NCBI GenBank assembly: GCA_963665095.1 | Contig: OY762069.1 | Coordinates: forward strand, 1,568,001 to 1,632,000 | Direction: 5' to 3' | DNA: 64,000 nucleotides | Source: an uncultured Desulfobacter sp. | Lineage (GTDB): Bacteria > Desulfobacterota > Desulfobacteria > Desulfobacterales > Desulfobacteraceae | Part shown: piece by piece, positions 31,012-57,412 of the stretch | Numbering within the stretch: the first letter of the stretch is position 1 | How the letters are laid out: every line of letters starts with the position of its first letter | Made by a program: the position numbers and the translations under genes | Notes under the pieces: generated by a model | Told to the model about the DNA's origin: nothing | Database searches by the model: none | The model's input: the letters and a program-made list of their open reading frames with translations, nothing else

Positions 31012-32040
31012 TCATGAAAAAACAGCCGAACGGCTTCTGCCATACTGAATACCTAAACGGTCCATACGTTTTCTAAGGGTATTGGGATGGACACAAAGAA
31101 GCTCGGCAGCCCCACCAGGCCCGTTAATTTTTCCTTTAGCTGAATTCAGGGCACGGGAAATATGGATACGGTTGATCTGTTCAAGACTTAAAAACTGAAC
31201 CCTCCCCTGAGGCGTTTTAAAGTCTTGCTGGGGTTCAGACAGAATAAATTCATGGTTCTGCACCATAATATCAGAAAAATCAAGAAACCTGCCTTTGCAG
31301 CTGATCATGGCCCGCTCAATGACATTTTCAAGCTCTCTGACATTTCCCGGCCAGTTGTGGTCAGTCAGAAGACGCATACCACTGTCCGAAATGTCAGGTT
31401 CAAACTCTGGATTCAGTACAGCCATCTTTTTACGGATAAAATACCTGGCCAGATCCGGAATATCGGCTTTCCGACGCCGTAACGGGGGAATATGGATGGG
31501 AAAGACATTGAGCCGGAACCAGAGATCTTTTCTGAAACTACCGTTAACCACCATGGACTGAAGGTTTCTGTGGGTGGCAGAAATGATGCGAATATCCACC
31601 GACAGAGGCTGGTTGCCGCCAACGCGCTCAATTTCACGGTTCTGAATAACATTGAGCAGTCGCACCTGTGCTGACAGGGGCAGCTCTCCTATTTCATCAA
31701 GGAAAATAGTACCCTGATGGGCCCGTTCAAAGCGGCCCTGCTTTCTGAGAACAGCGCCTGTAAACGCCCCTTTTTCATGGCCGAACAATTCACTGTCAAT
31801 AAGGGTTTCAGGAATGGCGCCGCAGTTGACACTTACAAAGGAATGATGACTTCTGTTGGATTTTTGGTGAATCAGGGAAGCAATAATTCCTTTCCCCACT
31901 CCGGTCTCTCCAATTAAAAGTACTGAGGTGCCTGTTTCTGCAACCTGCTCAACCTGCTCCATAACACCGGCAAGGCCTTTATCTGTACCAATCAGAAAAT
32001 TTTTTTCAAAAAAGTCTTCTGTTTTTTTTGCTGTTTCCAT
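31012..32040 (-). CDS. Sigma54-dependent activator (AAA+ and HTH) without an N-terminal sensory domain
   Basis: [38 protein letters not shown]-terminal GAAELL..HPNTLR; in-frame TGA five codons upstream of the ATG. Confidence 0.92.
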
Positions 32041-32343: not shown

Positions 32344-32901
32344 TCAGACAGTGTCATCATAGATATTAAGTTCGGCACGCAGGGTTTTTCTACCCCTTGC
32401 CAGAAGTGATTCCACTGCTCGAACTGTAATATCAAGGGTTCGGGCAATATCACGGTAGTTCATTCCATGGATATGACGCAGGTATAGGGCTGAGCGCTGG
32501 TTTTTAGGCAGGGTTAAAAAAATCGACTCAATTTTATCTTTTAACTCAAAGGCGCATAACTGACTTAAGGGGGTGGAAAGAGAAATCTGCTCGGGCAGGT
32601 CGGAGACAGCAAGGGGACGTTTTTTGCGCAAGTGATCAATACACAGGTTGCGTGCAATTTTAAACAGGTAGGTTTCCAGGCGGCCATAATAAATTTGGGC
32701 ATCCGCATTGGCGTACAATCTTAAAAACACTTCCTGGGCAATATCCTCAGCTTCATGACTATTACGAAGAAGATTAAAGGCAAACCCATATATCCCGTTT
32801 TGATAACGGTCCAGGATCTCCTCAAATGCCTTTTTGTCACCCTTGGAAATCAAGGTCATCAAATCAGCATCTGTCTTTTGGGAATACAAAAGCGATGTCA
32901 T
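32344..32901 (-). CDS. ECF RNA polymerase sigma factor
   Basis: GD..AF..I...Y, AEDIAQEVF, YLFKIARNLCID.LRK, region 4 Y.DIA..L...V..V.S.L.R.R. Confidence 0.93.
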   Translation of the reverse strand: MTSLLYSQKTDADLMTLISKGDKKAFEEILDRYQNGIYGFAFNLLRNSHEAEDIAQEVFLRLYANADAQIYYGRLETYLFKIARNLCIDHLRKKRPLAVSDLPEQISLSTPLSQLCAFELKDKIESIFLTLPKNQRSALYLRHIHGMNYRDIARTLDITVRAVESLLARGRKTLRAELNIYDDTV

Positions 32902-33470
32902 TAATTGGCAGGTTTTATTTCCATCTCTGGCCGTTTCATCATGCCGGGGGATTCCATCATTGGTGGCGGCGGCGGCGGCGCCCCCTTCCCGGACCGTTCC
33001 ATCATTGTCCTTTCTTGAAATCGTTTTCTGACCTCGGAAAAATAATATCTTGTTTTTTCCGGTCCAATAAGGTCTCTGATTTCAATGAGGTGTTCAATTT
33101 TATCTGAAACGGTCTGACCCAGCATCCGGCTGAGCACTTCCTTTTGTCTTTCAAATGCGATTTTATCCAGTGGCCCGGGCTGACTGATCACTTCAATCAG
33201 TTTGTCCTCTTCCTTCATAACCTGTTGCATAAAGTCAAAGTGACGTTTATTCATGTGCTGAAGGGCCGCGGCCATCTTATCTTTTACATCATCGGAAAGA
33301 TCCATTCCTGCAAGCACTTGAATGCCGGTGTTTTCAGGCCCTGGAAGCCTTTGCATCGGTATATGGTTTGGCGGTTTGAAAGCAATAACCGTAGCTATCA
33401 CCCCGATATTTAGGGCGACTGAAAAGGCCAGCACTATCCACACCCCTTTTTTTAAAAAATTTATACCCAT
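32901..33470 (-). CDS. Periplasmic Spy/CpxP/ZraP-like (heavy-metal sensor) protein
   Basis: SVALN.G signal/TM segment, helical Met-rich body, poly-Pro tail; sits between anti-sigma and ECF. Confidence 0.7.
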   Translation of the reverse strand: MGINFLKKGVWIVLAFSVALNIGVIATVIAFKPPNHIPMQRLPGPENTGIQVLAGMDLSDDVKDKMAAALQHMNKRHFDFMQQVMKEEDKLIEVISQPGPLDKIAFERQKEVLSRMLGQTVSDKIEHLIEIRDLIGPEKTRYYFSEVRKRFQERTMMERSGKGAPPPPPPMMESPGMMKRPEMEIKPAN

Positions 33471-33892
33471 GACAGCAGAAGTCCTCCTGAAAAATAGAGA
33501 ACAGATGATACAAAACCATGAACCGTGTCGGAATTTGACGCCAGATCAAGGCCCAGCCGGCAGCCGGTGTATAGCCCCGCGGCCATCCCCATGGCCATGG
33601 CAGTACGCATAAGCCAGTCAAATTGAAAAAGGCTCGTTTTAACAGGGCCTGCGGCCACAAGGTCCTCAAAACGGTCAAGCGTTTTAAATTTTAAATCTCT
33701 GGAAGGAAGGCGGGCTGGAATACGCTCAAGCATTTCGGAAAGGCGTTTCAGTTCCAGGGCCTGCCTGTGACACTGTCTGCACGTGGAAAGGTGTTGATCA
33801 ACAGCCCTTTCAGCTTCCGGTGCCAGCTCACCATCAATCCAGGAATCGATTTTTTCATTTGCTTCCATGCATTTCATATGATCTACCTCCAT
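33461..33892 (-). CDS. zf-HC2 anti-sigma factor
   Basis: C......S.IDGEL......V..HL..C..C plus TM segment. Confidence 0.9.
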   Translation of the reverse strand: MEVDHMKCMEANEKIDSWIDGELAPEAERAVDQHLSTCRQCHRQALELKRLSEMLERIPARLPSRDLKFKTLDRFEDLVAAGPVKTSLFQFDWLMRTAMAMGMAAGLYTGCRLGLDLASNSDTVHGFVSSVLYFSGGLLLSWV

Positions 33893-33911
33893 GAATACTC
33901 ATCCTTTTAGT

Positions 33912-33941
33912 ATTAACGATCGAGCAGGGAAAAACCGGCGG
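33912..33941 (-). promoter_or_regulatory. Putative autoregulatory ECF promoter of the anti-sigma operon
   Basis: CCGCCGGTTTTTCCCTGCTCGATCGTTAAT about 20 nt upstream of the start codon; CGT core typical of ECF -10 elements. Confidence 0.6.
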
Positions 33942-34090
33942 TATTTTTTTCTAAATCTGACTATTTTTTAAGGGGTCAAATTCTACTCTATTTTTTAATT
34001 TTACACCATAGCGTATACGATCTCCTCCTATGGCATAAAACATACAACCGAACACTATATTAACACCTTGAATTAATAGGTAAAATCATT

Positions 34091-34108
34091 CAGGCATGGT
34101 TTGTGCCA
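34091..34108. promoter_or_regulatory. Sigma54 (-24/-12)-like element readable on both strands
   Basis: Plus: AGGCATGGTTTGTGC; minus: TGGCACAAACCATGC; both have GG-N10-GC. Confidence 0.45.
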
Positions 34109-34187
34109 TCATGGAACTCAACCAGTGAGACTTTTGCAGATTTATCTTTAAAAGCAACCTTGGAAAAGAGACATTTGAGGAGCAGCC

Positions 34188-35114
34188 ATGAAAATACATC
34201 TTCATAAAAATGCCACAACCACACCAGCCCAAAGGGCGTTTATTCAAAATAATCCCCACCTCACCGTGGCCGCTCTTGCGGAAAAAACAGGCGTCAGCAA
34301 AACCACAATCCGGCGGTGGCAGAAACGTATGGATGTATATGACCGTCCACACACCCCGAAACGAATTAAAACCGCCCTGTCTCCCATTGAGGAAATCAAG
34401 ATCACTATGTGCCGCATGGCTTTCAGGGCCGGACTCGATGATCTGAACCAGATCGCTGAAAACTTTTTTAACATCAAGTGCTCACGAGCCAGCTTGAACA
34501 GATGTCTTAAACGATATGAAATATCAAAACTGCCCAACCTGAAATCTTTTGTGCCCTTTGACCTTAAAGACTATACTGGTACCTATTTTTATTATTCCTG
34601 TTTTCACCTGCCTTCATTTTCGGAATCTGAACCGCCAGTGGTATTGCAATGTCTTCTAGACTGCACATTTCGGACGTTTCATGCACAATATTCCACTGCA
34701 CCCAGCAGGTTTTTACTGGATTATATCCAGCATTTCCCTTTGCGGGTTTTAGGCATTATTTACAGTGCCCCCATAATCCTTGGGGATCGGCATCCCGACA
34801 TGGCGTCCTCCCAGAGATCTATCCTGCAATTGTGCCGAACCTTAGGCCTGACATCAAGCTTTATTGACAACCAGCATTCCCAGGCCGAAGACAAACTGAA
34901 CCATACGTTGCAAAAGATGCTTAAAAACAGTGAAAAACAGGATTTAACAAATATCTGGAAAACCAACGACGATTTATTTAAACAGATTCATCAATATAAT
35001 TTTGATCTCCCCCTGGGTTTTTTAAAACAAAAAACCCCTTTTAAAGCTCTGGAATCTCACTATACTCACTTCCCAAACAGCTTCAAATTAAAGCCGGAAG
35101 CGCTTGCTTCTTAA
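34188..35114 (+). CDS. IS481-family transposase-derived protein; HTH intact, DDE residues degenerate
   Basis: N-term LHKNATTTP..R..IQ...LA...GVS..TI.RW..R....DR...P; SRASLNRCLKRY.IS.LP; C-term YN...PL..LK.KTP; expected HID and TDNG replaced by YYS and YSAP. Confidence 0.8.
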   Translation: MKIHLHKNATTTPAQRAFIQNNPHLTVAALAEKTGVSKTTIRRWQKRMDVYDRPHTPKRIKTALSPIEEIKITMCRMAFRAGLDDLNQIAENFFNIKCSRASLNRCLKRYEISKLPNLKSFVPFDLKDYTGTYFYYSCFHLPSFSESEPPVVLQCLLDCTFRTFHAQYSTAPSRFLLDYIQHFPLRVLGIIYSAPIILGDRHPDMASSQRSILQLCRTLGLTSSFIDNQHSQAEDKLNHTLQKMLKNSEKQDLTNIWKTNDDLFKQIHQYNFDLPLGFLKQKTPFKALESHYTHFPNSFKLKPEALAS

Positions 35115-35126
35115 CCTGTCTTTTCT

Positions 35127-35156
35127 GTTCCCTGCAGAAAATTTTCTGCAGGGAAC
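35127..35156. repeat. Perfect 30-bp palindrome
   Basis: GTTCCCTGCAGAAAA|TTTTCTGCAGGGAAC. Confidence 0.9.
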
Positions 35157-35198
35157 CAGCCTTTAACAATAAATTTTTCCGTATCTTTCTTTTAAAGA

Positions 35199-35278
35199 AA
35201 ATCTCATATGATTAATTTTAGATAAAATTATAATCCATAAATACATGGATAACCCTTTAAGAACTAATCATATGAAAC
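35199..35278. promoter_or_regulatory. Paired operator-like sites upstream of fliC
   Basis: ATCTCATATGATTA (35201) and TAATCATATGAAAC (35265); the latter recurs exactly at 54990-55003. Confidence 0.55.
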
Positions 35279-35314
35279 TTTCTATAATCATATTTTTTCA
35301 CTAGTTTTACCGAC

Positions 35315-35342
35315 TAAAGATTGACTAATCATCACACGATAC
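35315..35342 (+). promoter_or_regulatory. Sigma28 (FliA)-type promoter of flagellin
   Basis: TAAAGATT-N12-CACGATAC; same layout upstream of fliD. Confidence 0.7.
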
Positions 35343-35514
35343 CATGGCAGAATAACGGATCGATCCAGGCAGATAGCATCTGCCGCAACCCAAACCCTTC
35401 CTGAATATGTCTATTCAGACGGATCTGATCAGACTGTTTAGGAAAGAACTCCTAAAGGTGGACCGGCACTGATGCCGGCACTTAATTTACACCCAAATTC
35501 ACGGAGGAAATCAC

Positions 35515-37935
35515 ATGAGTTTAAGTATCAATACCAACCTGGCCGCACTCACCGCCCACAGAAACATGGTCGCCACAGACAATGATATGAGCACATCCCT
35601 TACCCGTCTCTCCACAGGGTTGCGGATCAACTCTGCGGCAGACGATGCATCCGGTCTGACCATTGCTGATTCTCTGGCAGCTCAGGCAGACGGCCTGGGC
35701 CAGGGCATTCAGAATGCCAATGACGGCGTTTCAATTGTCCAGACTGCAGATGGCGCTCTTGAAGAGTCTGTAAGCATCGTTAACACAATTAAAACCAAAG
35801 CCATCCAGGCCGCTTCTGACACCCAGACCACGGAAACCCGCTCGGCTATTCAGGAGGACATTGACAAGCTGTTGGAAGAACTGGACAGCATTGCCACCAC
35901 AACTTCCTACAACGGCATGCAGCTTCTTAACGGCACATACACCAACAAGGTCATCCAGACCGGGGCCTCTGCCAATGAAACTGCATCCATCAGCATTGGT
36001 AACAGCGAATCAGATTCCATTGGCCATATCTCCACCGCCACCCTGGAACTCGACGTTGATGACGGCGATGAAGTGCAGCTGACCATTACCTCATCCATCA
36101 CCGGAGAGGATGTGGAACTTGAATCAATCACCATCGAAGCAAATAATGAGGAGGAAAACGGCCTGGGTGCCCTGGCTGACGAAATCAATTCCGTATCATC
36201 TGTCACAGGCGTGTCTGCGGTGGCAGTTGTGGAAACCACTACAGAGTCGGCTATCCAGCAAGGCACCACTGGTTCTGATTTCTCCATCAACGGCGTGACC
36301 ATAGGTGCCGTTAATGTGGAAGACAATGACTCAGATGCATCGTTAGTGACGGCCATTAATGATGCCACCACAGAGACCGGTGTTTCAGCCGCAATCAATG
36401 ATGACGGCACCATTACTCTGACGTCTGAAGACGGTCGCGTCATCAGTGTTACCGGAGATCTGGGCGATGTGTTTGGCGAAGGCGTGACTGCGGATGACCT
36501 GTCAACCATCGGATACATCACTCTGACCCAGGACGGATCCAGCCAGTTTAATATTACAGCGTCTGCCACATCCAGTCTGGATACAAACCTTACAACAAAT
36601 GCGACGTATGAAACTGCGGATGACATGACCCTGGCGAAAGGGTCAACCATACAATCCGGTTCCACCCTTGCTGCAGGAAGTGTGGTTGGTGCTGATATAG
36701 AGGTTATAACGGCTGCTGTTGATGATACCCTCTATGACTATGAACTGGCATCCGGTTCCACCCTTAAAACGGGTTCTGAGTTAGCCCAAGGGACAACCAT
36801 AGGCGGGACTATTACGGTTGATTCAGCAGATGCAACTTTGAATACGGATATGACAATTGAAGCAGGATCGACCCTTGAGTCAGGGAGTATACTTGCCGCA
36901 GGCACTGTCCTGACTGCCACGTTTACGGCCGGCGGCGAAACCTATGAAGCGGGCGATACCTTGACTGCAAAGGTGACTCTTACCTCAGACTTAACTTTAA
37001 CTGAAGACATGACACTGTCAGCTTCCTCAGCGCTTGAGTCAGGGACGGTCCTTACGGCCGGCACGGAACTTGGAGCCGATATAACCCTGGCTGCCACGTT
37101 AACAACAACGGAGGATATGACACTGGAAGCCGGGTCTTCGATCCTGACAGGATCTACCCTTGCCGCGGGGACCACCCTGGGCGATGATACGGTGGTGGCA
37201 TCGACAACAGGTGGAGACATTACAACCACTGAAGAGACTGAAATCTCTGCCGGATCAACCCTATTAACCGGCCTTATTATTGCTGAAGATTCGGAAGTCA
37301 ATGGCACGATTACCATTGCCCAGACAGATTTATCTACCGGAGATTCCGTAACATTGGAGGAAGGCAGCACTCTTGCCGCGGGTACCACCATTGCGGCGGG
37401 TACAACCATTACCACAGATATTAGTGCAGGTTCCATTACTAGTGCAACATCTGATATTGAAGCAGGAACGACGATTACAACAGACATTGTGCTTTCAAGT
37501 GCCGTAACCCTTACTGACTCAATGACGTTGACAGGCACTGGCAATAGAATTGCCGCCGGATCGGAGGTCAATATCTCCAGCGGGGATTCAGGGGATGTGG
37601 TCCTTTCTGACCAGGAGAGTCTGACCCTGTCGGATATCAGCGTCATGACACAGGAGGATGCGGAAATCGCCATAGAAATTGCAGAAGCGGCACTGGCGGA
37701 TCTGGATTCCATACGTGCGTCTCTGGGTTCCACGGAAAATCAGCTGACATCCACCATCTCCAACCTGTCAGTTACCAAAACCAACGTCACGGCGTCTGAA
37801 TCCACTATCCGTGATGTTGACTTTGCAGAAGAGACATCCAACTATGCAAGACTGGCACTTTTGGCCCAGACAAGCTCCTATGCCCTGAGTCAGGCCAATG
37901 CATCAACCTCGAACATTACAAGCCTGCTGCAGTAA
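35515..37935 (+). CDS. fliC: Flagellin, 806 aa, hyper-acidic, with large repeat insertion
   Basis: INTN..A..A.RN...LSTGLRINSAADDASGL; C-term RA.LGS..NQL...ISNL....N..ASES.IRDVDFA.E. Confidence 0.96.
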   Translation: MSLSINTNLAALTAHRNMVATDNDMSTSLTRLSTGLRINSAADDASGLTIADSLAAQADGLGQGIQNANDGVSIVQTADGALEESVSIVNTIKTKAIQAASDTQTTETRSAIQEDIDKLLEELDSIATTTSYNGMQLLNGTYTNKVIQTGASANETASISIGNSESDSIGHISTATLELDVDDGDEVQLTITSSITGEDVELESITIEANNEEENGLGALADEINSVSSVTGVSAVAVVETTTESAIQQGTTGSDFSINGVTIGAVNVEDNDSDASLVTAINDATTETGVSAAINDDGTITLTSEDGRVISVTGDLGDVFGEGVTADDLSTIGYITLTQDGSSQFNITASATSSLDTNLTTNATYETADDMTLAKGSTIQSGSTLAAGSVVGADIEVITAAVDDTLYDYELASGSTLKTGSELAQGTTIGGTITVDSADATLNTDMTIEAGSTLESGSILAAGTVLTATFTAGGETYEAGDTLTAKVTLTSDLTLTEDMTLSASSALESGTVLTAGTELGADITLAATLTTTEDMTLEAGSSILTGSTLAAGTTLGDDTVVASTTGGDITTTEETEISAGSTLLTGLIIAEDSEVNGTITIAQTDLSTGDSVTLEEGSTLAAGTTIAAGTTITTDISAGSITSATSDIEAGTTITTDIVLSSAVTLTDSMTLTGTGNRIAAGSEVNISSGDSGDVVLSDQESLTLSDISVMTQEDAEIAIEIAEAALADLDSIRASLGSTENQLTSTISNLSVTKTNVTASESTIRDVDFAEETSNYARLALLAQTSSYALSQANASTSNITSLLQ
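36625..37575 (+). repeat. Hexapeptide ([LI]xxG[ST]x) repeat region inside flagellin
   Basis: About 7 blocks such as LAKGSTIQSGSTLAAGSV, LEAGSSILTGSTLAAGTT, LEEGSTLAAGTTIAAGTT. Confidence 0.85.
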
Positions 37936-44075: not shown

Positions 44076-46028
44076 TTACATATAGTCCACAAGGCTTAGC
44101 CCCATGACAATGGATGTAGAACTCAAAGCCGCTTCATAAACCGTCTGAGTGGAATTGAGCACCATAATGGCCTCCACAGTATCCGCATCCTCCACGGTTG
44201 ACAGTTGTGTTGTCAGGGTGGATTCCGAATCAGAGATGGTGGCTTCGGTAATTGTGGTGGTATCGTAGATGCTTCCAATGGAGGAGATACTGGAGGTAAT
44301 ACTTTCATAGTGATTTTCCAGCCGGGTCATGGCCCGCTGTATGCCGTCCACATCGTTGTTTTCCAAGGCTTCCTTGAGGTCAAAAATGGTATCCCAGATG
44401 CTCCAGGTGGTCTGTTCCCCCTCCACAGGGCCTGATGAGACATCCACACCGTTGAAACCAAGGTCTGAGGAGGCACTGGTGGCAGCATTGGTGCCGCTGG
44501 AAAAAAGCAGATCAAAGGATTCAAGCTGCCTGCCGGTGTCAACATCCTCGCTGATGGTAAAGGTGTTGCTGTTCTCGTCGTATTCAACCGAATAGTTGAC
44601 CCGGTTGCCGTTCTCAGCAGAGGCAGTTTCAAGGGCTTCTTCCACAGCTTCAGCGTAAGATTCCGGATCTGAATAACTGCCGGCCTCTATTACAGCGGTC
44701 AGTTGTACACTGGCATCGCCATCCAGAGTGGTTTCAGTGAAATCAATGGTGTCATTTTCCCCTGCCACCACTGAAAATGTCTCAGCCACTTCAACATCAC
44801 TGCTTACGGGTTCAAGGGTCACTGTTTCCGAATCAAACCCAAGATCTGCCAGAATACTGGCATTTTCATACCCTTCTACAATGTCAAAGGAGATAACAGT
44901 CCCCTCTTCCGGGATGTCGTTTAAATCAATGACAATATCCGTGTCCCCGTCATCATCCACATCAATTTCTATGGTGCTGCCACTGGCTTCAATTTCAGAA
45001 GGAAGACCATATCCGGGATCATTGGAGACTTCCCAGGTACCGTCTTCGGTATATGTCAGGGTCAGCGGATCCGAACCTTCCGGCTCCGGCGTATATTCGG
45101 TTAATGCTGTGGCATTGACAATTTCAATTTCCGCATCTTCAAAATCCTGGCCGGCTGATTCAAAATTTGAAATCCGCACCGTTTCAGTCTGAATAGCCTC
45201 AAAAGTAACGGTAGTTGTGGTATCACTGCCGTCAGTGCCAATGGAAAATGTGTTGGATGCTTCATCATATGCCACTTCATAGACAATACCGTACCCCTGT
45301 TCTTCCGACGCCTCATTCAGGGTATCTTCAACAACGGCAGCCAGTGCTTCCTTACTGTAGGTGCCGCTGGTCACGGTGGCTTCAAGGACAATGATGTTTT
45401 CTTCACCCGTTCCCGGATCTTCAGTGAATATAATCTGGTTATTGGTGGTATCTACAATGATTTCATCTTCATAAAACAGATCACATCCGCAGCAGGCAAG
45501 GGATACATCCGTATTTTCAGAAATACTGATATTTACCGCGTCACTGGTGCCGTTATAGCTGACACTGGTGGGATTATCGTCGTCGTCCGGAGTAAACGGG
45601 GCAGTTTGATTATCATCCCCTGCAAAAACATATCCGCCATAAGCGTCTGAGTTGGCAAGGTCCAGAAGGGTATCGAGGTAGACCAGCATGCTTTCAGCCG
45701 CATCCGTGCGTTCCTGGGTGCTGGATGAGGCATTGGCAAGGGAAGAACACAAAAGCTTCATTTCGGACAACTGATCTGCAATGGAGTCAAGGGCGGTTTC
45801 AGCTGTGGTCAGCACGGTCTGGGCCTGGTCAACATTGGTCTGATACTGGTCCAGGCTTGCCAGGGTGGAGTTGATGCTTAATACCTGGGTCATTCCGGAA
45901 GGATCATCTGATGCCGAATTGATCTTCAGGTTGGTGGAGACGGTCTCATTGGCCTCGCTGAGATCGGAAGTAAGCCTGCCAAGCTGATATGTGGCCTGTT
46001 TATATATGCTTATTGTGGGCACTCTCAT
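44076..46028 (-). CDS. flgL: Flagellar hook-associated protein 3 (FlgL), enlarged
   Basis: MRV.T, VST..KIN..SDDP, GGYVFAG, C-term DAD..EAI..L...QT.YEAAL...SL.DY. Confidence 0.92.
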   Translation of the reverse strand: MRVPTISIYKQATYQLGRLTSDLSEANETVSTNLKINSASDDPSGMTQVLSINSTLASLDQYQTNVDQAQTVLTTAETALDSIADQLSEMKLLCSSLANASSSTQERTDAAESMLVYLDTLLDLANSDAYGGYVFAGDDNQTAPFTPDDDDNPTSVSYNGTSDAVNISISENTDVSLACCGCDLFYEDEIIVDTTNNQIIFTEDPGTGEENIIVLEATVTSGTYSKEALAAVVEDTLNEASEEQGYGIVYEVAYDEASNTFSIGTDGSDTTTTVTFEAIQTETVRISNFESAGQDFEDAEIEIVNATALTEYTPEPEGSDPLTLTYTEDGTWEVSNDPGYGLPSEIEASGSTIEIDVDDDGDTDIVIDLNDIPEEGTVISFDIVEGYENASILADLGFDSETVTLEPVSSDVEVAETFSVVAGENDTIDFTETTLDGDASVQLTAVIEAGSYSDPESYAEAVEEALETASAENGNRVNYSVEYDENSNTFTISEDVDTGRQLESFDLLFSSGTNAATSASSDLGFNGVDVSSGPVEGEQTTWSIWDTIFDLKEALENNDVDGIQRAMTRLENHYESITSSISSIGSIYDTTTITEATISDSESTLTTQLSTVEDADTVEAIMVLNSTQTVYEAALSSTSIVMGLSLVDYM

Positions 46029-46098
46029 GAAGGATCTCCCCGAAATACTGTAATTACACAGTCCTTTAAAAAGCTGCTTTCAACAATTTTTATATGCG

Positions 46099-49000
46099 TC
46101 ACCGTATGGCCAAAAGGGCCTCAAACATCTCTTCCACAGTTGTCAGCAACTGGGCCGCGGCAAGATACGCCTGCTGCTGGGCTGTCAGGTTGATCATCTC
46201 CTCGTCCAGGGAGACCGCGGAAATAGAATCCCGCTGTGACGTGAGCTGGTAAACCAGCGTTTCTGCATACTCCAGTGCAGAGGAAATACTTGAAGCGGCA
46301 GAACCCACGGACGACACCAAAGAGGCCTGGTAATCGTCAAGGGTTGTCTGGGTTACAGTAACCGAAACCCCCTCCCCTCTGGTATAGGTGTACGCCTTCA
46401 TATCCAGGGTGGTATACCGGGTATCTGACATGGCCAGGGCATTGGTGTTATCACTAGCAGCAAGCGCCCCTGTTTCAGTATCCACCATGCCGGAGGCAAG
46501 ATAATCACCGTCCGACACCACCTCATTCACACTGATGGTGGCAGCATCCGTGCCGGTAAAAAAGGTATTCACACCCAGGGCTGCGGCAAGGCCGCAATCC
46601 CCGTCAACATCCCCTGCAAAGGCATAGGAAAGGTCATCGGCATCCTTTGACTCAAAATCGATACGGATATATCCATCCCCGGTAACTGCCTTGTCAAAGA
46701 TAATTTCAATATCACCGATGCCGTCACCGTCCAGATCAATTTCAAACCCGTCGTCATCCCCGCCCTCAGGAATGATGGTAATGGTGCCGCCGGTGGGATC
46801 ATTGGCCACATACCAGGTGCCGTTGCTGCGTACAAACTGCAGGTCTTCTGCCTCAATTGTAAGGGCATTGTAGTTTAATACCGTAATTTCAAAATTTTCT
46901 TCATCAATGTTGTCAGCCCCTGAACAGGAGACATTTTCTATGGCACAATAATCGTCACTGGTTTGAAAAACGAGTGTGTTGTCCCCGGTAACAGAAGTGG
47001 CCACCCCCCCGGCACTGCGGTTGAATTCCTCGGCAAAGGATTCAAGGGTCCAGTGCCAGTCAGACAGGGTTTCAACGGTATTTCCATCGGCATCAGTTAC
47101 AGCATCACCGTTCTCATCCGTAGTAATATAAAAAACATCTCCTTCCACCAGAGTCCCGGAATCAAAGGTCAGGGTCATGCCGTCCACGGCCACGGTTATC
47201 TGGGAATTTTCATCCTCGGTACCTTCCAGTTCAATGGCGCCTGATCCGGTTTCAGATGTCCACTCAATTACAATAACATCTTCATTATCCGGCAGGGTTC
47301 CTCCGGAAACAACCGTAAACTCATAGGTATCATCGACGCTTGCAGCCGTTCCTGTCACATAAACGTCAAGCAGATCCGCCTGCCCATCCTCATCCGTATT
47401 TATCCGCAGGGTATTTCCAGCCACCAGACTGCCTTCAGAAATGTCAAAGCTTAAGATAGTTTCCCCGTCTTCGGTTATTTCCACCACACCGGATTGGTCC
47501 ACTTCTATGTACCCGGATGTACCGGTACTGTTACCCGCCTCATCCAGCACTTCCCAATAGAGTATGGCAGCATCCCCATAGGTAACAGCCGTGGTTGAGT
47601 TTTTAGTATCGGAATTGGCCACCAGGGTATCATTTTCAGGTGTTTCACTTCCGCTGCCTGTTCCCGTGGTAACACTTAAGGTGCTGTTTCCGAGAGTGGA
47701 GCTGAAATCGGTAATTTCAACGGCATCATCTCCGGTCTTTACAATGGTGATCGAGGTGCCGTTTTTAATAATCTCATAGCTTTCTGAAGGTAACACAGCT
47801 GACAGGGCGTCGTACAAATCCTGGGCGTTGGACGCATCATCCAGGCCGTTAGTTACAGTGTAGGATATTGTGTAGTCATCCACGTCAAAGGAGATAACAG
47901 ACCCGGTATAAAACTGATTATCATCCCCGTCAAAGCCCAGTGTAATCATGCTTGAGCCTGAACCTGAACTGCCTGAGGCGCCGAAAAGTCCGGTGTCAGA
48001 CGTCTGGTCCGAGGAGATTTCCATCCCGGGATCCATCACAATGGTGACACTTCCGGTGATCACGGCAGCTGTATCATACCCGCTGTATGCATCCCCAACA
48101 ATGGCAGAAACACCGGTTTGGGAGCTGGTCTCACACCCGGATAAATATACGGTCAGGTAATCAGTGGAAACAGGGGCAGAATAGATAACCTCCGAGTCAT
48201 ATGGTGTACCAAATGTCAGGATGCCGTCACCTGAATCAGTTTGTGAGCCGGACAAGGGAGTAACTGCAATAGTGGCGTCATCACCTGAATCTGCATCAGC
48301 ATCAAGTATTGACATATAATTACTGGTGGTGCCATGCAAAATAACGGCATCGTTATCTGCATCATACTCTACGCTTAAAAGCCCATTGCCCTCCTCTTCC
48401 ACGGCAGCAGACATGGCATCATAAAACGCCAGTGAGACCGCTGCCTGATCAGAGGTATCAACATCGGTTAAATCCACCTCAACATCAATGTAGGTATCCA
48501 CCCCATCCACAGTTACCATCAGGCTGAAACCGACCGTATCGCCCTGGTTGAAATTCTGAAACGAACTGAGCTGATAGCCGGCCGTGTCCACCACTTCAAA
48601 ATCCTGGATACCAAGGGTGGCGCCTGAGGCGCTTTCAATGGTGGTGCCGTCCACTGCCAGATCCGTGTCCTGCCTGGTTTCATTGATGGATTGAGCTGCA
48701 GCTGCCAGAGCATCTTCAAACTGTTCTTCAAGGGTACCGGCGGAAGAATCCACCGTAAAACTGACGGTTTCTTCCACCCCGTCAACGTATAAAGTAAACT
48801 GAACCACATCACCGTCATCAGCATCACTTATCTTTGAAATGTCAAAATTAAGTTCCGTAGTTGAGGCATAAGCAGTAATACCGTCAATGTCGGACAATTC
48901 ATCTGCAATATCTGCAGCAGAGCGAACCGCGTCTGATCCGTCATCACCGATATCAAGTGTCCAGGTATCATTACCATTGGAAATGGTTAAGGTCTGTTCC

Positions 49001-50286
49001 GACAGTGCAGCATCCAGGGCATCTGCGATATCAGAGGCGCTTGTGGTAATGCTGCCCAGATTGGTTGCGCCGGACTGCACTAAAATCTGTTCTCCCAAAG
49101 TGCCTTCATCAATCACTGTGATTTCATAGGTACTGCTCTCCTCGCCGGTTCCGGAAATATTTGAAATTTCAGAGGTAGAAATGGCCATATCTACCGTTAC
49201 GGTCTGGTATTCGGAATCAGTACCGGAGGCATCCTGGATCACCATGGAAAAATCTTTCGAATAATCTATGTCATCTCCATAGTAAAGACTGGCAAGGGTA
49301 CCGATGTCTCCGGCCTCATATGTTCCTTCAAGGGAACCTGAAAAATAGGTCTGGCCGGCGCCCTGGGAGTGGACATAATTCAGCGTCCAGATTAGGTTTG
49401 ACGCCAGTTCATCAAATTCAGCCATGGTTTCAGGGATAATGACGTCTCTGACTTCCAGCCATCCGGCAATGGCACCACAGGATATGTCATCGGTAATGTC
49501 ATAGGCGTTCCCGGATTTCCCGTTCCAGTATACGCTGCCCTGCTTTACGCTCAAGTCATAGGCAATCCCGTCCTCCACCAGGGGCAGGCCGCTGGTGGTA
49601 ATGAGATAGGTGCCGTCCTCCTTGACTGTGATATCAATGTCAATCAGTTCACCTAAGTCATCCACCAGGGCATTTCGTTCGTCTTCCAGATCATTGGCAT
49701 TGCCACCAGTGCTTTCAGCATTAATAATGGACAGATTCAATGCGGCAATCTGCTCGGCAATGGAGTTGACTTCGGATACGGCGGAAGATATTTCCGTATT
49801 CAGATTCGCAGTCAGTTCGGTTAAATCTTCCTCAATGGCATTGATACGGTCTGCCAGGGCCACACCTGCATCATACACGGCATTTTGCTCAGTTTCCCCG
49901 GAAGGGTTATTGCTCAAATCTTCCCAGGCAGACCAGTAGGCATCCAGCAGGGTGTTCAGACTGTCGTCACTGTCCTCGGAAAACAAATCCTCAATGGTGG
50001 CCATGTAGACCTCTTCCTCTTCCAGGGCCGCCTGGGTGGACAGTTCAGAGGTAAGGGCATTTTCAATGGTCTGGTTGACTGAACTTTCCACTGTTTCAAC
50101 GGTCACGCCGGTACCGTAGATATTTCCCCCGGGAGAGACCGTGGAGGTGGTGGACAAGACTGCCGTCTGGATGCTGTAATCATCATTATCCGCATTGGCA
50201 ATATTCTGGCTGGTCACGCTGATGGCGGACTGGTAGGCGGAAATGGCATTTGCCGCCGTGTTTAATATGGCATTCAGGCTGCTCAT
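46099..50286 (-). CDS. flgK: Flagellar hook-associated protein 1 (FlgK), 1395 aa
   Basis: Q.AI.VT.QNIANA....YS, W.DLS..P, ANDL.D.R..L, S.VSLDEEMINL...QQAY.AAA. Confidence 0.94.
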   Translation of the reverse strand: MSSLNAILNTAANAISAYQSAISVTSQNIANADNDDYSIQTAVLSTTSTVSPGGNIYGTGVTVETVESSVNQTIENALTSELSTQAALEEEEVYMATIEDLFSEDSDDSLNTLLDAYWSAWEDLSNNPSGETEQNAVYDAGVALADRINAIEEDLTELTANLNTEISSAVSEVNSIAEQIAALNLSIINAESTGGNANDLEDERNALVDDLGELIDIDITVKEDGTYLITTSGLPLVEDGIAYDLSVKQGSVYWNGKSGNAYDITDDISCGAIAGWLEVRDVIIPETMAEFDELASNLIWTLNYVHSQGAGQTYFSGSLEGTYEAGDIGTLASLYYGDDIDYSKDFSMVIQDASGTDSEYQTVTVDMAISTSEISNISGTGEESSTYEITVIDEGTLGEQILVQSGATNLGSITTSASDIADALDAALSEQTLTISNGNDTWTLDIGDDGSDAVRSAADIADELSDIDGITAYASTTELNFDISKISDADDGDVVQFTLYVDGVEETVSFTVDSSAGTLEEQFEDALAAAAQSINETRQDTDLAVDGTTIESASGATLGIQDFEVVDTAGYQLSSFQNFNQGDTVGFSLMVTVDGVDTYIDVEVDLTDVDTSDQAAVSLAFYDAMSAAVEEEGNGLLSVEYDADNDAVILHGTTSNYMSILDADADSGDDATIAVTPLSGSQTDSGDGILTFGTPYDSEVIYSAPVSTDYLTVYLSGCETSSQTGVSAIVGDAYSGYDTAAVITGSVTIVMDPGMEISSDQTSDTGLFGASGSSGSGSSMITLGFDGDDNQFYTGSVISFDVDDYTISYTVTNGLDDASNAQDLYDALSAVLPSESYEIIKNGTSITIVKTGDDAVEITDFSSTLGNSTLSVTTGTGSGSETPENDTLVANSDTKNSTTAVTYGDAAILYWEVLDEAGNSTGTSGYIEVDQSGVVEITEDGETILSFDISEGSLVAGNTLRINTDEDGQADLLDVYVTGTAASVDDTYEFTVVSGGTLPDNEDVIVIEWTSETGSGAIELEGTEDENSQITVAVDGMTLTFDSGTLVEGDVFYITTDENGDAVTDADGNTVETLSDWHWTLESFAEEFNRSAGGVATSVTGDNTLVFQTSDDYCAIENVSCSGADNIDEENFEITVLNYNALTIEAEDLQFVRSNGTWYVANDPTGGTITIIPEGGDDDGFEIDLDGDGIGDIEIIFDKAVTGDGYIRIDFESKDADDLSYAFAGDVDGDCGLAAALGVNTFFTGTDAATISVNEVVSDGDYLASGMVDTETGALAASDNTNALAMSDTRYTTLDMKAYTYTRGEGVSVTVTQTTLDDYQASLVSSVGSAASSISSALEYAETLVYQLTSQRDSISAVSLDEEMINLTAQQQAYLAAAQLLTTVEEMFEALLAIR

Positions 50287-55003: not shown

Positions 55004-55255
55004 AAAAACTTAAAAAGAATGTCTTTGCCCTAACTAAATTCGGATGCTTCCTCTTCTTCAAAAGGAAAATTTTACCCATCCTTCTGATTTTATTAATTTA
55101 CCAGTCATATACAACTAAAGGGCGGATTTAAAATTTTTATTTGAATGCAAATCTCACTTATTTAGTTTTTTCGTTTTTCACCAATGATGGAATTATTGAA
55201 ATTTATATTGCGATTAATCAGTTGAGACATAGCAATTTTGTGATGTTTCCGCCTT

Positions 55256-55283
55256 TAAAGAATGGGGCGTTTACAGGCGATAC
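55256..55283 (+). promoter_or_regulatory. Sigma28-type promoter of fliD
   Basis: TAAAGAAT-N12-GGCGATAC. Confidence 0.72.
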
Positions 55284-55351: not shown

Positions 55352-57412
55352 ATGGCAACCGGCACCATTACCTCACTTGGACTGGGCTCTGACCTTGACC
55401 TGCAAAGTCTTCTGGACACCCAGCAGGAAGCGGATGAGACAATTAACGACCTCAAACTGGATGAAATTGAGGAACTTGAAGCGGAAGAAGAAGCGCTGAC
55501 ATCCGTTCAAAGTGAGCTTCTGGCCATGAAAGCCAGTGCCCTGAATCTGTCTTTATCCTCCACCTATCTCTACAGAGATGTCAACTCTTCGGATGAAGAT
55601 GTGGCTACGGCCACAGTGCTTGATGGAACAGATACCGGAACCCACACCGTTGCAACAACGCGCCTGGCCTCCAACAGTTCGTATATGTCCGACGGATTTG
55701 AATCTGAATCTTCCACTGTGTATGTTCCCACCACGCAACAGTCCACTGACAGCTATGAAAGTGTTACAGATACCATACTGGAAGATGGAGACACCCTGAC
55801 CATCTCATATGGGGATGAAGATGGCCCCACCACTTTCACCATCACTGCTGCCGGGGACATGAGTGTTGAGGAACTGGCGGAGGCGATTAACACGGATGCG
55901 TCCAATGTGGACGATGACGGCAATACACTGGTAACGGCCAGCACCTACCTGGATGATGATGGCAGTATTCATATCCAGATTGATTCAACCTCGGAAGGGA
56001 CCGGAGAAGACAACCGCGTAGAAGTATCAGGGTCAGATGGTGTCACCTCCTTTACTGCCCCCACCCTGGAACTTTCTTTCAGCGTTGGAGACGGTGAGGT
56101 GTTTACCATCTCAGTACCTGCGGAAACAACCCTCGAAGATCTTGCCGAGCGGATTAATGATGCGGATGATAATCCCGGCGTTACAGCCACAGTTATTTAC
56201 ACAGGCACCGGTGACAATCCGTATCAGCTGGTTTTAGAGGCCGATGACAGTGGTGAAGACAACCGGATTACCATTGTCAGCAATGTGGAAGCATTAGGCC
56301 TGACCGAGTCAAACGGTGACGGCTACACCATGACAGGGGACGAATCCATCTCCTTTGAATCCGCTGTTACCATCGATGACACAAACAATACTATTGTATT
56401 TGAAGAGGTGGATGAAGATGGGAAGAGTGTCTCTGTGACAGCCCGGATTGATGCAGGCACCTATGATACCGCAGAAGAGCTGGCTGAAGCGGTTGAGTTA
56501 GCCCTTGAGAACGCCTCCAAAGAAGATGGCAATAATACGGACTACTCAGTTGAAATCGACTCTGAAACCGGATTAATGACCATTTCAGAAGCAGGCACCC
56601 TGGAAAGCGTGACCATTAACTGGGAAGATGACACCTGTACTGCAGCCGACACTTTAGGCTTTACTGAAACCAAAACCATCACACCCATGGACTCCTCACT
56701 GAATGCCATGGTCACCGTTGACGGCATTACCTATCAGCGCCAGGAGAACACAGGCATTGATGACATTATTGACGGTGTGACCCTGAAACTGTACTCCACA
56801 GGAAACACCACCATTACCGTGGAAAACGATACAGAAGATATTGTGACAGAAATCACAAGCCTTGTGGAGACTTACAACACACTGCTTGCTGAGATCGATG
56901 AAAATGATGACTATGACGATGATGAGGAAACCTACGGAACCCTGGCCCAAAGTTCCACTATCAGAACCCTGAAAACCTCATTGCAGGACCTGATCACCTC
57001 GGTGGTGGATACAGGCGGAGACATTACAAGTCTTCTGGATATTGGTATTGAGATTGATGAGGATGACGGCACGCTCACTCTGGATGAAGAAACCCTTGCA
57101 CAAGTATTGGAAGATAACTATGACGAGGTTGTCGCCCTGCTCAAAGGCACAGACGATGAAGAGGGTTTAGGCGATGTTCTAAATGATGCATTCGGTTCCT
57201 ACGCCATCTCTGACGGATATATTCAGAATGAAATTGATGCCATTGAAGACAAAATTGACCGCCTGGAAGAGGACTATGAGGAAGAAGTAGAGCGTATTGA
57301 AAAAAAATATGAAATTATGGCGGCAGAATACACAGAGCTGGATTCCTACCTTTCCGAACTTGCCAATATTGAAAGCTATATTGATACCATGATGTCTACT
57401 GATGATGACTAA
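55352..57412 (+). CDS. fliD: Flagellar filament cap FliD
   Basis: G.ITSLGLGS.LD, V..LA, VDG....R..N....D.I.GVTL.L, L..IGI.....G.L.LD, C-terminal coiled coil. Confidence 0.93.
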   Translation: MATGTITSLGLGSDLDLQSLLDTQQEADETINDLKLDEIEELEAEEEALTSVQSELLAMKASALNLSLSSTYLYRDVNSSDEDVATATVLDGTDTGTHTVATTRLASNSSYMSDGFESESSTVYVPTTQQSTDSYESVTDTILEDGDTLTISYGDEDGPTTFTITAAGDMSVEELAEAINTDASNVDDDGNTLVTASTYLDDDGSIHIQIDSTSEGTGEDNRVEVSGSDGVTSFTAPTLELSFSVGDGEVFTISVPAETTLEDLAERINDADDNPGVTATVIYTGTGDNPYQLVLEADDSGEDNRITIVSNVEALGLTESNGDGYTMTGDESISFESAVTIDDTNNTIVFEEVDEDGKSVSVTARIDAGTYDTAEELAEAVELALENASKEDGNNTDYSVEIDSETGLMTISEAGTLESVTINWEDDTCTAADTLGFTETKTITPMDSSLNAMVTVDGITYQRQENTGIDDIIDGVTLKLYSTGNTTITVENDTEDIVTEITSLVETYNTLLAEIDENDDYDDDEETYGTLAQSSTIRTLKTSLQDLITSVVDTGGDITSLLDIGIEIDEDDGTLTLDEETLAQVLEDNYDEVVALLKGTDDEEGLGDVLNDAFGSYAISDGYIQNEIDAIEDKIDRLEEDYEEEVERIEKKYEIMAAEYTELDSYLSELANIESYIDTMMSTDDD

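Follow-up and report, generated by a model that had tools for sequence, protein, structure and literature searches.

What does a gene that looks like a transposase do directly in front of a flagellin gene? The question is posed by a stretch of 64,000 nt from the genome of an uncultured Desulfobacter sp. (assembly GCA_963665095.1, contig OY762069.1, positions 1,568,001 to 1,632,000; this whole stretch is called the window here), in which an open reading frame (ORF) of 308 amino acids (aa), termed the focal gene, precedes flagellin on the same strand. A reading of the locus made without database searches (below, the sequence-only reading) had taken the ORF for a full-length but catalytically dead transposase of the IS481 family of insertion sequences (IS), exapted as a DNA-binding protein. 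From the comparative analysis described here, we consider it fairly probable that the gene is a single-copy, dead IS481 descendant whose product is a predicted sequence-specific DNA-binding regulator of the sigma-28-type promoters of flagellin and of the filament-cap gene fliD. We infer the regulatory role from a cis-element that is confined to filament-gene promoters and co-occurs with the gene across genomes and genera.

The focal gene and its catalytic triad

The focal gene is, as described in the sequence-only reading, a single unbroken reading frame with a clear ribosome-binding site; it starts with ATG, and in the aligned upstream regions of the orthologs the GAGG of that site is kept. 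The gene and the parts of its product are laid out as follows:

34188..35114 (+): focal gene, encoding a 308-aa protein, IS481-derived and DDE-dead by alignment, with two helix-turn-helix (HTH) modules and a predicted integrase-like core
34177..34182 (+): ribosome-binding site GAGGAG, 5' of the focal ATG
Residues ~13-45 and ~66-109: HTH modules of the focal protein
Residues ~116-300: RNase H-fold core (integrase-like, predicted)

Pfam matches to the focal protein are to HTH models only, at residues 18-49, and Pfam detected no rve domain. The NCBIfam IS481 model NF033577, on the other hand, aligns residues 23-287 with profile positions 12-283 of 284 (272 positions, E 1.1e-16), at a score of 61.2 bits that lies below the curated cut-off of 224 bits. 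Because the match spans the full profile at so low a score, the relationship to IS481, judged by profile, is one of end-to-end homology with strong divergence, much as the sequence-only reading had recognised from the motif pattern. An AlphaFold2 model built from 27 family sequences (predicted local distance difference test score, pLDDT, 82.9; predicted template modelling score, pTM, 0.75) has N-terminal helices followed by a beta1-3/alpha/beta4/alpha/beta5 core. Its best Foldseek matches are to the IstA transposase 8b4h (E 1.9e-8) and to retroviral integrases, those of HIV. VIA-align superimposes the model (residues 116-292) on HIV-1 integrase 5u1c with Z 9.1 over 128 aligned residues and a root-mean-square deviation of 3.4, and gives Z values of 8.3 for IstA, 7.9 for TnsB and 7.0 for MuA. 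The modelled protein would therefore have the order expected of this family, HTH modules and then an integrase-like RNase H-fold core. A sequence search of the PDB with the focal protein gave nothing meaningful (best E 0.8), and hhalign of the family profile against five classical IS481 transposases gave a weak partial match in the N-terminal part (E 0.0038, probability 8.7); the usable catalytic alignment came from closer, LHKNA-type relatives and not from the classical IS481 set.

The columns of the catalytic Asp-Asp-Glu (D-D-E, or DDE) triad were set by aligning the focal protein with six DDE-intact relatives of 26-32% full-length identity:

D1: HID in the active relatives, S137 (YYS) in the focal protein, within model strand 132-141
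D2: TDNG in the active relatives, S193/A194 (YSAP) in the focal protein, at the end of model strand 187-193
E: MVERFN in the active relatives, N238 (KLNHT) in the focal protein, within model helix 231-246

No triad residue is left. The loss is also not peculiar to the window: of 102 homologs found, 96 are 280 aa or longer; none of these has D or E in the D1 column, and D is absent from the D2 column in all 96, though 75 have a D one position later; E or D stands in the E column in 17. Outside this dead clade the full triad is present in 30 of 31 relatives. On this alignment the focal protein is a catalytically dead descendant of the IS481 family. The sequence-only reading had placed both Asp losses correctly (HID to YYS, TDNG to YSAP); for the third motif the loss itself holds, there being no acidic residue at the E column either way, and the register given was a few residues off. 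Identity to active transposases is 41-51% in residues 1-115 against 17-21% in residues 116-308, in keeping with the earlier impression that the HTH half is much better conserved than the RNase H half.

Inheritance of the focal gene and its mobile relatives

Exactly one uninterrupted ortholog is present in each of 16 of the 24 genomes of the genus, and orthologs also occur in other Desulfobacteraceae genera, with none found in 16 genomes from other families of the order. The own genome (6.9 Mb) carries the focal gene once, together with one 36% paralog elsewhere that is also DDE-dead. Flagellin lies directly 3' of the ortholog, on the same strand and 356-623 bp away, in 14 of 16 relatives' loci; it also lies directly 3' in 13 of 14 named loci whose identity is 48% or more, Desulfospira and Desulfobacula among them (some loci belong to both sets), so that the place directly upstream of flagellin, remarked on for the window by the sequence-only reading, is a conserved one. 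Ratios of nonsynonymous to synonymous substitution (dN/dS, or omega) were estimated by the Nei-Gojobori method for 15 orthologs, and for the 25 closest of the 105 pairs they are 0.18-0.48 over the whole gene, 0.03-0.26 over residues 1-115 and 0.20-0.56 over residues 116-308. Against the window copy dS is saturated and dN is about 0.25, with the frame still intact, and mean column identity among homologs over residues 1-60 is 79%. These ratios, which are not near 1, indicate purifying selection on both halves of the coding sequence, stronger on the HTH half. Copy number, unbroken orthologs, synteny and dN/dS had all been named in the sequence-only reading as points to check; together with the lost triad and the lack of IS ends they support its view of exaptation, that is, of a domesticated transposase retained as a single-copy host gene.

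No IS481-like terminal inverted repeats, which the sequence-only reading had not seen either, and no target duplication were found flanking the focal ORF, nor does it occur in multiple or mobile copies. The end sequence of an active relative has 14 matches in the window (at most three mismatches) against 8.3 expected, none of them flanking the ORF. In two relatives the ortholog starts 22-29 bp past the preceding host gene, which leaves no space for an IS end. A 16-nt inverted pair at 34088/35391 (88% complementary) was considered as a pair of IS ends and rejected; its arms overlap the flagellin leader and the sigma-54-like element described below, and the upstream regions of relatives, when aligned, do not show it.

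Scanning a single genome for each species brought up active relatives. One of them, an active IS481-type element of 1055 bp, is present in at least 15 copies in Tepidimonas sp. HKU77 (loci L065-L079); it has 19-bp terminal inverted repeats starting TGT, its target duplications are 6 bp long, and its transposase gene has the stop codon within the right end. This transposase is 32% identical to the focal protein over residues 1-303 and has HID, TDNG and MVERFN. With the IS481 LHKNA(T/R)TTP subgroup to which it belongs, the focal protein shares two HTH modules, an integrase-like core and a C-terminal YN...TP, in the same order, and an identity of 26-32% overall and 41-51% in the DNA-binding half. 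Unlike that subgroup, it has no D-D-E triad, terminal repeats or target duplication, reaches 61 bits on a model whose cut-off is 224, and is encoded by a single-copy gene at a fixed position that is inherited vertically in one bacterial family. Judged by these features, the focal gene is not an insertion sequence.

A maximum-likelihood tree of 50 rows was rooted at its midpoint and included distant IS481 as a single outgroup row; three over-long or degenerate rows (L092, L103, L116) and five rows of less than 270 aa had been excluded. All 21 dead rows, nearly all of them from Desulfobacteraceae, form one clade on a long stem (support 96/92), and the flagellin-linked clade comprises 14 rows (100/99). 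The 28 active rows are short-branched and drawn from many phyla. In this midpoint-rooted tree the dead clade is thus monophyletic, restricted in its hosts and set apart from its mobile relatives, and appears to have a single origin, essentially inside Desulfobacteraceae.

The 36% paralog (C1:4041199-4042164; loci L002, L038) lies in a non-flagellar context; its downstream neighbours are two ORFs without an assigned function and a phospholipase A1 gene. The own genome is rich in transposases, with 60 matches to the IS481 model. Among its other elements are 14 near-identical copies (13 of them equal-scoring) of a 418-aa transposase that reaches 205-210 bits on that model, below the cut-off; at locus L003 (C1:333135-336914) an AAA-type ATPase-like gene follows this transposase, as in Mu/Tn552-like pairs.

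A conserved site at filament-gene promoters and the surrounding genes

The elements upstream of flagellin and fliD in the window, both of which are assigned to a filament gene set here called 'set A', are these:

35192..35221 (+): distal conserved site, whose core AAAATCTCAnnTGATTA starts 115 nt before the flagellin TAAAG
35258..35287 (-): proximal inverted site, whose core starts 51 nt before the flagellin TAAAG
35315..35341 (+): sigma-28-type promoter-like element of flagellin, TAAAG-N17-CGATA, 173 nt 5' of the ATG
35515..37935 (+): flagellin ('set A'), 806 aa
54987-55003 and 55213-55228: look-alikes of the site 5' of fliD
55142..55171 (+): conserved site of fliD, scoring 18.6 on the position weight matrix (PWM), 114 nt before the fliD TAAAG
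55256..55282 (+): sigma-28-type promoter-like element of fliD
55352..57412 (+): fliD (filament cap), 'set A'

All 15 linked flagellin loci have TAAAG-N17-CGATA 135-173 nt 5' of the ATG, and the sigma-28-type pattern is present in 14 of the 15 set-A fliD loci scanned (the gene start of L151 was not resolved); as far as a pattern match goes, these are late flagellar promoters of the sigma-28 (FliA) type. In all 15 linked flagellin promoters the site core, AATCTCAnnTGATTAG (at most three mismatches), starts 114-116 nt before TAAAG. It was seen at that place in none of 14 other flagellin upstream regions, among them those of genomes without the gene and of second flagellins in gene-bearing genomes. 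In six loci from other genera that lay outside the training, the distal site has the same place in all six and the inverted proximal partner is present in four; the inverted pair would therefore be ancestral. In the window the pair has 26-nt arms (35192-35217 and 35262-35287) with 44 nt between them.

The site is some 20-30 bp long and its PWM was trained on flagellin promoters only. Even so, 11 of 14 set-A fliD upstream regions score at least 10, against one of eight other fliD regions and 0.9% of shuffled regions, and in nine of the 14 the site has a fixed place, 113-115 nt before the fliD TAAAG. Over the 6.9-Mb genome there are seven matches scoring at least 14, four of them in the window, where 0.075 would be expected: 35192 (+), 35258 (-), 55142 (+) 5' of fliD and 34111 (-) 5' of the focal gene itself. 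A PWM match near a second filament cluster (C1:5366317) falls within an ORF of 417 aa and was taken as chance. No sigma-54-type element was noticed by eye in the flagellin upstream region, for which no scan was made. The flagellin leader (35342-35514 in the window; 135-173 nt there and in relatives) is strongly conserved and holds a GC-rich hairpin, which suggests post-transcriptional control.

Around the focal gene itself three further elements have been identified:

34093..34107 (+): sigma-54-type promoter-like element GGCATGGTTTGTGCC, GG-N10-GC, 95 nt before the focal ATG
34111..34140 (-): copy of the conserved site, PWM score 14.6, directly after the sigma-54-like element and 77 nt before the focal ATG
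35127..35156 (+): terminator-like hairpin, a perfect 15+15 nt just past the stop, -23.4 kcal/mol, z -5.4, with no clean T run

The sigma-54-like element mentioned in the sequence-only reading does have the spacing GG-N10-GC, and an element of this kind stands 75-107 nt before the ATG in nine of nine loci with the ancestral gene layout (described below) and in none of five loci of crown Desulfobacter. The site copy next to it is a candidate autoregulatory operator, particular to this window. The hairpin past the stop suggests that the transcription unit of the focal gene is separate from that of flagellin. A search of 33800-35600 against Rfam gave a single match at chance level (E 0.81), though an undescribed RNA could escape such a search.

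The wider neighbourhood includes:

31012..32040 (-): sigma-54 activator with an AAA+ domain and no receiver domain, an ancestral neighbour
32344..33892 (-): genes for an extracytoplasmic function (ECF) sigma factor, a 189-aa protein and a zf-HC2 anti-sigma factor, divergent from the focal gene, ancestral neighbours
44076..50286 (-): flgL-like and flgK genes, which in other genera lie directly after flagellin and convergent to it

The ancestral layout, with the sigma-54 activator, ECF sigma factor, 189-aa protein and anti-sigma factor on the minus strand, the focal gene and flagellin on the plus strand, and flgL and flgK again on the minus strand, is common to the window, Desulfospira, a metagenome-assembled genome of Desulfobacula and other Desulfobacteraceae. 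In crown Desulfobacter the gene-flagellin pair has been relocated, mostly beside tRNA-Pro(CGG); the pair stays constant while its flanking genes vary between genomes. In five of the eight loci L016-L023 this tRNA gene stands just 5' of the pair. At L017, L022 and L023 only its 3' half is found, as if islands integrating there had left behind a remnant of an attachment site. Homologs of 42-49% identity in G011 (L037) and at L062 are convergent to flgL-flgK with no flagellin between; the link to the flagellar cluster would therefore be older than that to flagellin itself. The flagellin of the window is very large (806 aa); it has the flagellin N, C and IN domains, and its central variable region gives sub-cut-off matches to hexapeptide and left-handed beta-helix repeat models.

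Thirteen ortholog genomes (G001, G003, G005, G006, G012, G013, G016, G020-G024 and the own genome) have flagellins 88-100% identical in their N-terminal part to that of the window, and their FliD proteins are 73-81% identical to the window's (100% in the own genome). Values fall to 73-79% for flagellin and 48-59% for FliD in G009 and G017, whose orthologs are 51-56% identical, and to 66-70% and at most 48% in genomes without the ortholog, where any match was found. By these comparisons the focal gene tracks one filament gene set. A second set, in the own genome near 5.36 Mb (C1:5356935-5363238, L167), comprises a tandem pair of flagellins, whose N-terminal parts have 73-75% identity to that of the window flagellin, and a FliD of 44% identity; this set lacks the conserved site. 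The own genome therefore carries two alternative filament sets.

Proposed regulation, rival explanations and known systems

In the mechanism that we propose, the focal protein would bind the conserved sites through its two HTH modules. Its ancestral target would be the inverted site pair, with starts about 66 bp apart, and binding would probably be as a dimer or higher oligomer joined by the former catalytic core. The focal gene would be transcribed from the sigma-54-type promoter, driven by the neighbouring sigma-54 activator, and this control would connect the sigma-54 tier to the sigma-28 filament genes. In the window only, the extra site over the gene's own promoter would give autorepression. 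As to sign, we lean slightly towards a protein that activates or licenses the 'set A' filament genes and away from a repressor, because the sites lie upstream of the -35 element and keep a constant distance from it.

Several observations weigh against this proposal. Relatives do not make up independent samples, and the PWM was derived post hoc from related sequences, as was the sigma-54 search pattern, which was written after three examples had been seen. Five of the 14 set-A fliD promoters have no match of at least 10 at the fixed place, crown Desulfobacter species have no clear proximal site, and the candidate autoregulatory site is seen in this window only. The best PWM match genome-wide (30.7; C1:2854601-2854630, at about 2002-2031 of L139; AAAAATCTCACATGATTAGTT) is found at an unrelated locus, flanked by a divergent gene for a LuxR-type regulator and by an ORF of 195 aa with no known function; it is a possible further target of the focal protein. 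The HTH region is the low-confidence part of the AlphaFold2 model (pLDDT 42-70), and paralogs of 42% identity or less sit in non-flagellar contexts. G008, a complete genome of 4.0 Mb (L011, L036), has an intact 65% ortholog beside a PAS-containing sigma-54 activator and neither a 'set A' flagellin or fliD nor the site at its own filament promoters, its sole flagellin and fliD being of the other type; the gene may therefore have another role, or the loss there may be recent. Finally, another factor, for example the co-inherited sigma-54 activator, could be what reads the site.

Some weight, clearly less than we give to the regulator proposed above, goes to a domesticated host protein that does not read the site and has some other role at the filament locus or on DNA, whether architectural, as the partner of a regulator through its core, or in non-transcriptional nucleic-acid binding. 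The retention of the gene in G008 and the non-flagellar paralogs would fit such a role, and so would the selection still acting on the non-catalytic C-terminal core (omega 0.20-0.56), which must therefore do more than fold. Against it stand the bipartite HTH, which is the best conserved part of the protein (79% column identity in residues 1-60, omega 0.03-0.26 in residues 1-115), and the co-occurrence of site and gene across genomes and genera. Much less probable is a residual recombinase or synapsis protein that acts on the inverted pair, through non-canonical residues or a partner nuclease, and rearranges or loops DNA in a switch resembling phase variation. The 26-nt arms around 44 nt, the ancestral inverted pair and the D adjacent to the D2 position in 75 of 96 homologs would suit it, but D1 is missing in all 96, none of the three triad residues is left in the focal protein, crown species retain only one clear site, and the promoter lies outside the spacer, which is also much shorter than known invertible segments. 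The lowest probability goes to an inhibitor of transposition or an IS leftover, a dead copy that dampens active elements or a decaying hitch-hiker beside flagellin. The transposase-rich genome with its 60 IS481-model matches speaks for it, as does the label 'transposase' that one source gives to some homologs; however, no DDE-intact close relative was found in the own genome (the only other match of the focal query is the dead 36% paralog), no IS ends are present, and the orthologs have remained intact and syntenic, with omega well below 1, since before the genera split.

Within the proposal of a DNA-binding regulator there is a more speculative version, which we regard as rather unlikely: the inverted pair of ~30-bp sites might be the co-opted ends of the ancestral IS, a miniature-element relic, on which the dead transposase would still build a transpososome-like paired-end complex. 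Such a frozen complex might serve as a checkpoint that couples the sigma-54 tier to the sigma-28 filament genes and lets the cell choose between its two filament sets.

In plants and animals, transcription factors that descend from transposases are a textbook subject. FHY3/FAR1 (Mutator-like) and the relatives of CENP-B/pogo are eukaryotic transcription factors from DDE transposases that have kept the DNA-binding domain, with catalysis lost or dispensable, and whose sites are related to former element ends. The focal gene resembles them in its single-copy orthologs, purifying selection and retained transposase DNA-binding domain; it differs in being bacterial, of the IS481 family and, as proposed here, wired into sigma-54 and sigma-28 promoters. 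To our knowledge, documented regulators from bacterial DDE transposases are very scarce. Full-text literature searches found no description of an IS481-derived regulator, of a bacterial DDE case or of the focal gene family, and a term search of a 2022 review of mobile-element recruitment in prokaryotes (PMC8987985) gave no occurrence of 'DDE' or 'IS481'.

Two bacterial systems invite comparison. TldR, according to Wiegand et al. (PMC10705468), is a TnpB-like, nuclease-dead repressor that is RNA-guided, carried by prophages and represses host fliC. The sequence-only reading had drawn this parallel, and its theme stands, a transposon-derived protein with a dead active site tied to flagellin, in the case of TldR through its recruitment to transcription control. 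Fold and mode of DNA recognition do not carry over: the focal protein comes from a DDE transposase, with an integrase/DDE-like fold and IS481 homology instead of a TnpB/RuvC-derived fold, has HTH modules of its own, and is encoded on the chromosome of a host family in which it has long been present. There was no indication of a guide RNA, Rfam placing no RNA family at the locus, with the proviso that an undescribed one could be missed. Hin, as presented in the 2022 review (PMC8987985), is an active serine recombinase that inverts a promoter-containing segment and so switches flagellin genes. Like such invertases, the focal protein is derived from a mobile-element recombinase and is encoded next to a flagellin gene that has inverted DNA sites upstream; unlike them, it has lost its catalytic residues, and the promoter lies outside the short spacer.

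The path from element to host gene can be read here from sequence, from mobile relatives with ends and triad, through one loss of catalysis and long vertical inheritance, to candidate operators. The candidate regulon is small, comprising fliC, fliD and the focal gene itself, and the case as a whole offers a directly testable model for the passage of a bacterial insertion sequence into a host regulator. For annotation, the consequence concerns a family whose members are now named 'transposase' (some, in one source) or 'helix-turn-helix domain-containing protein'. For the biology of these organisms, the finding points to an unrecognised layer of flagellar control in sulfate reducers with two alternative filament sets.

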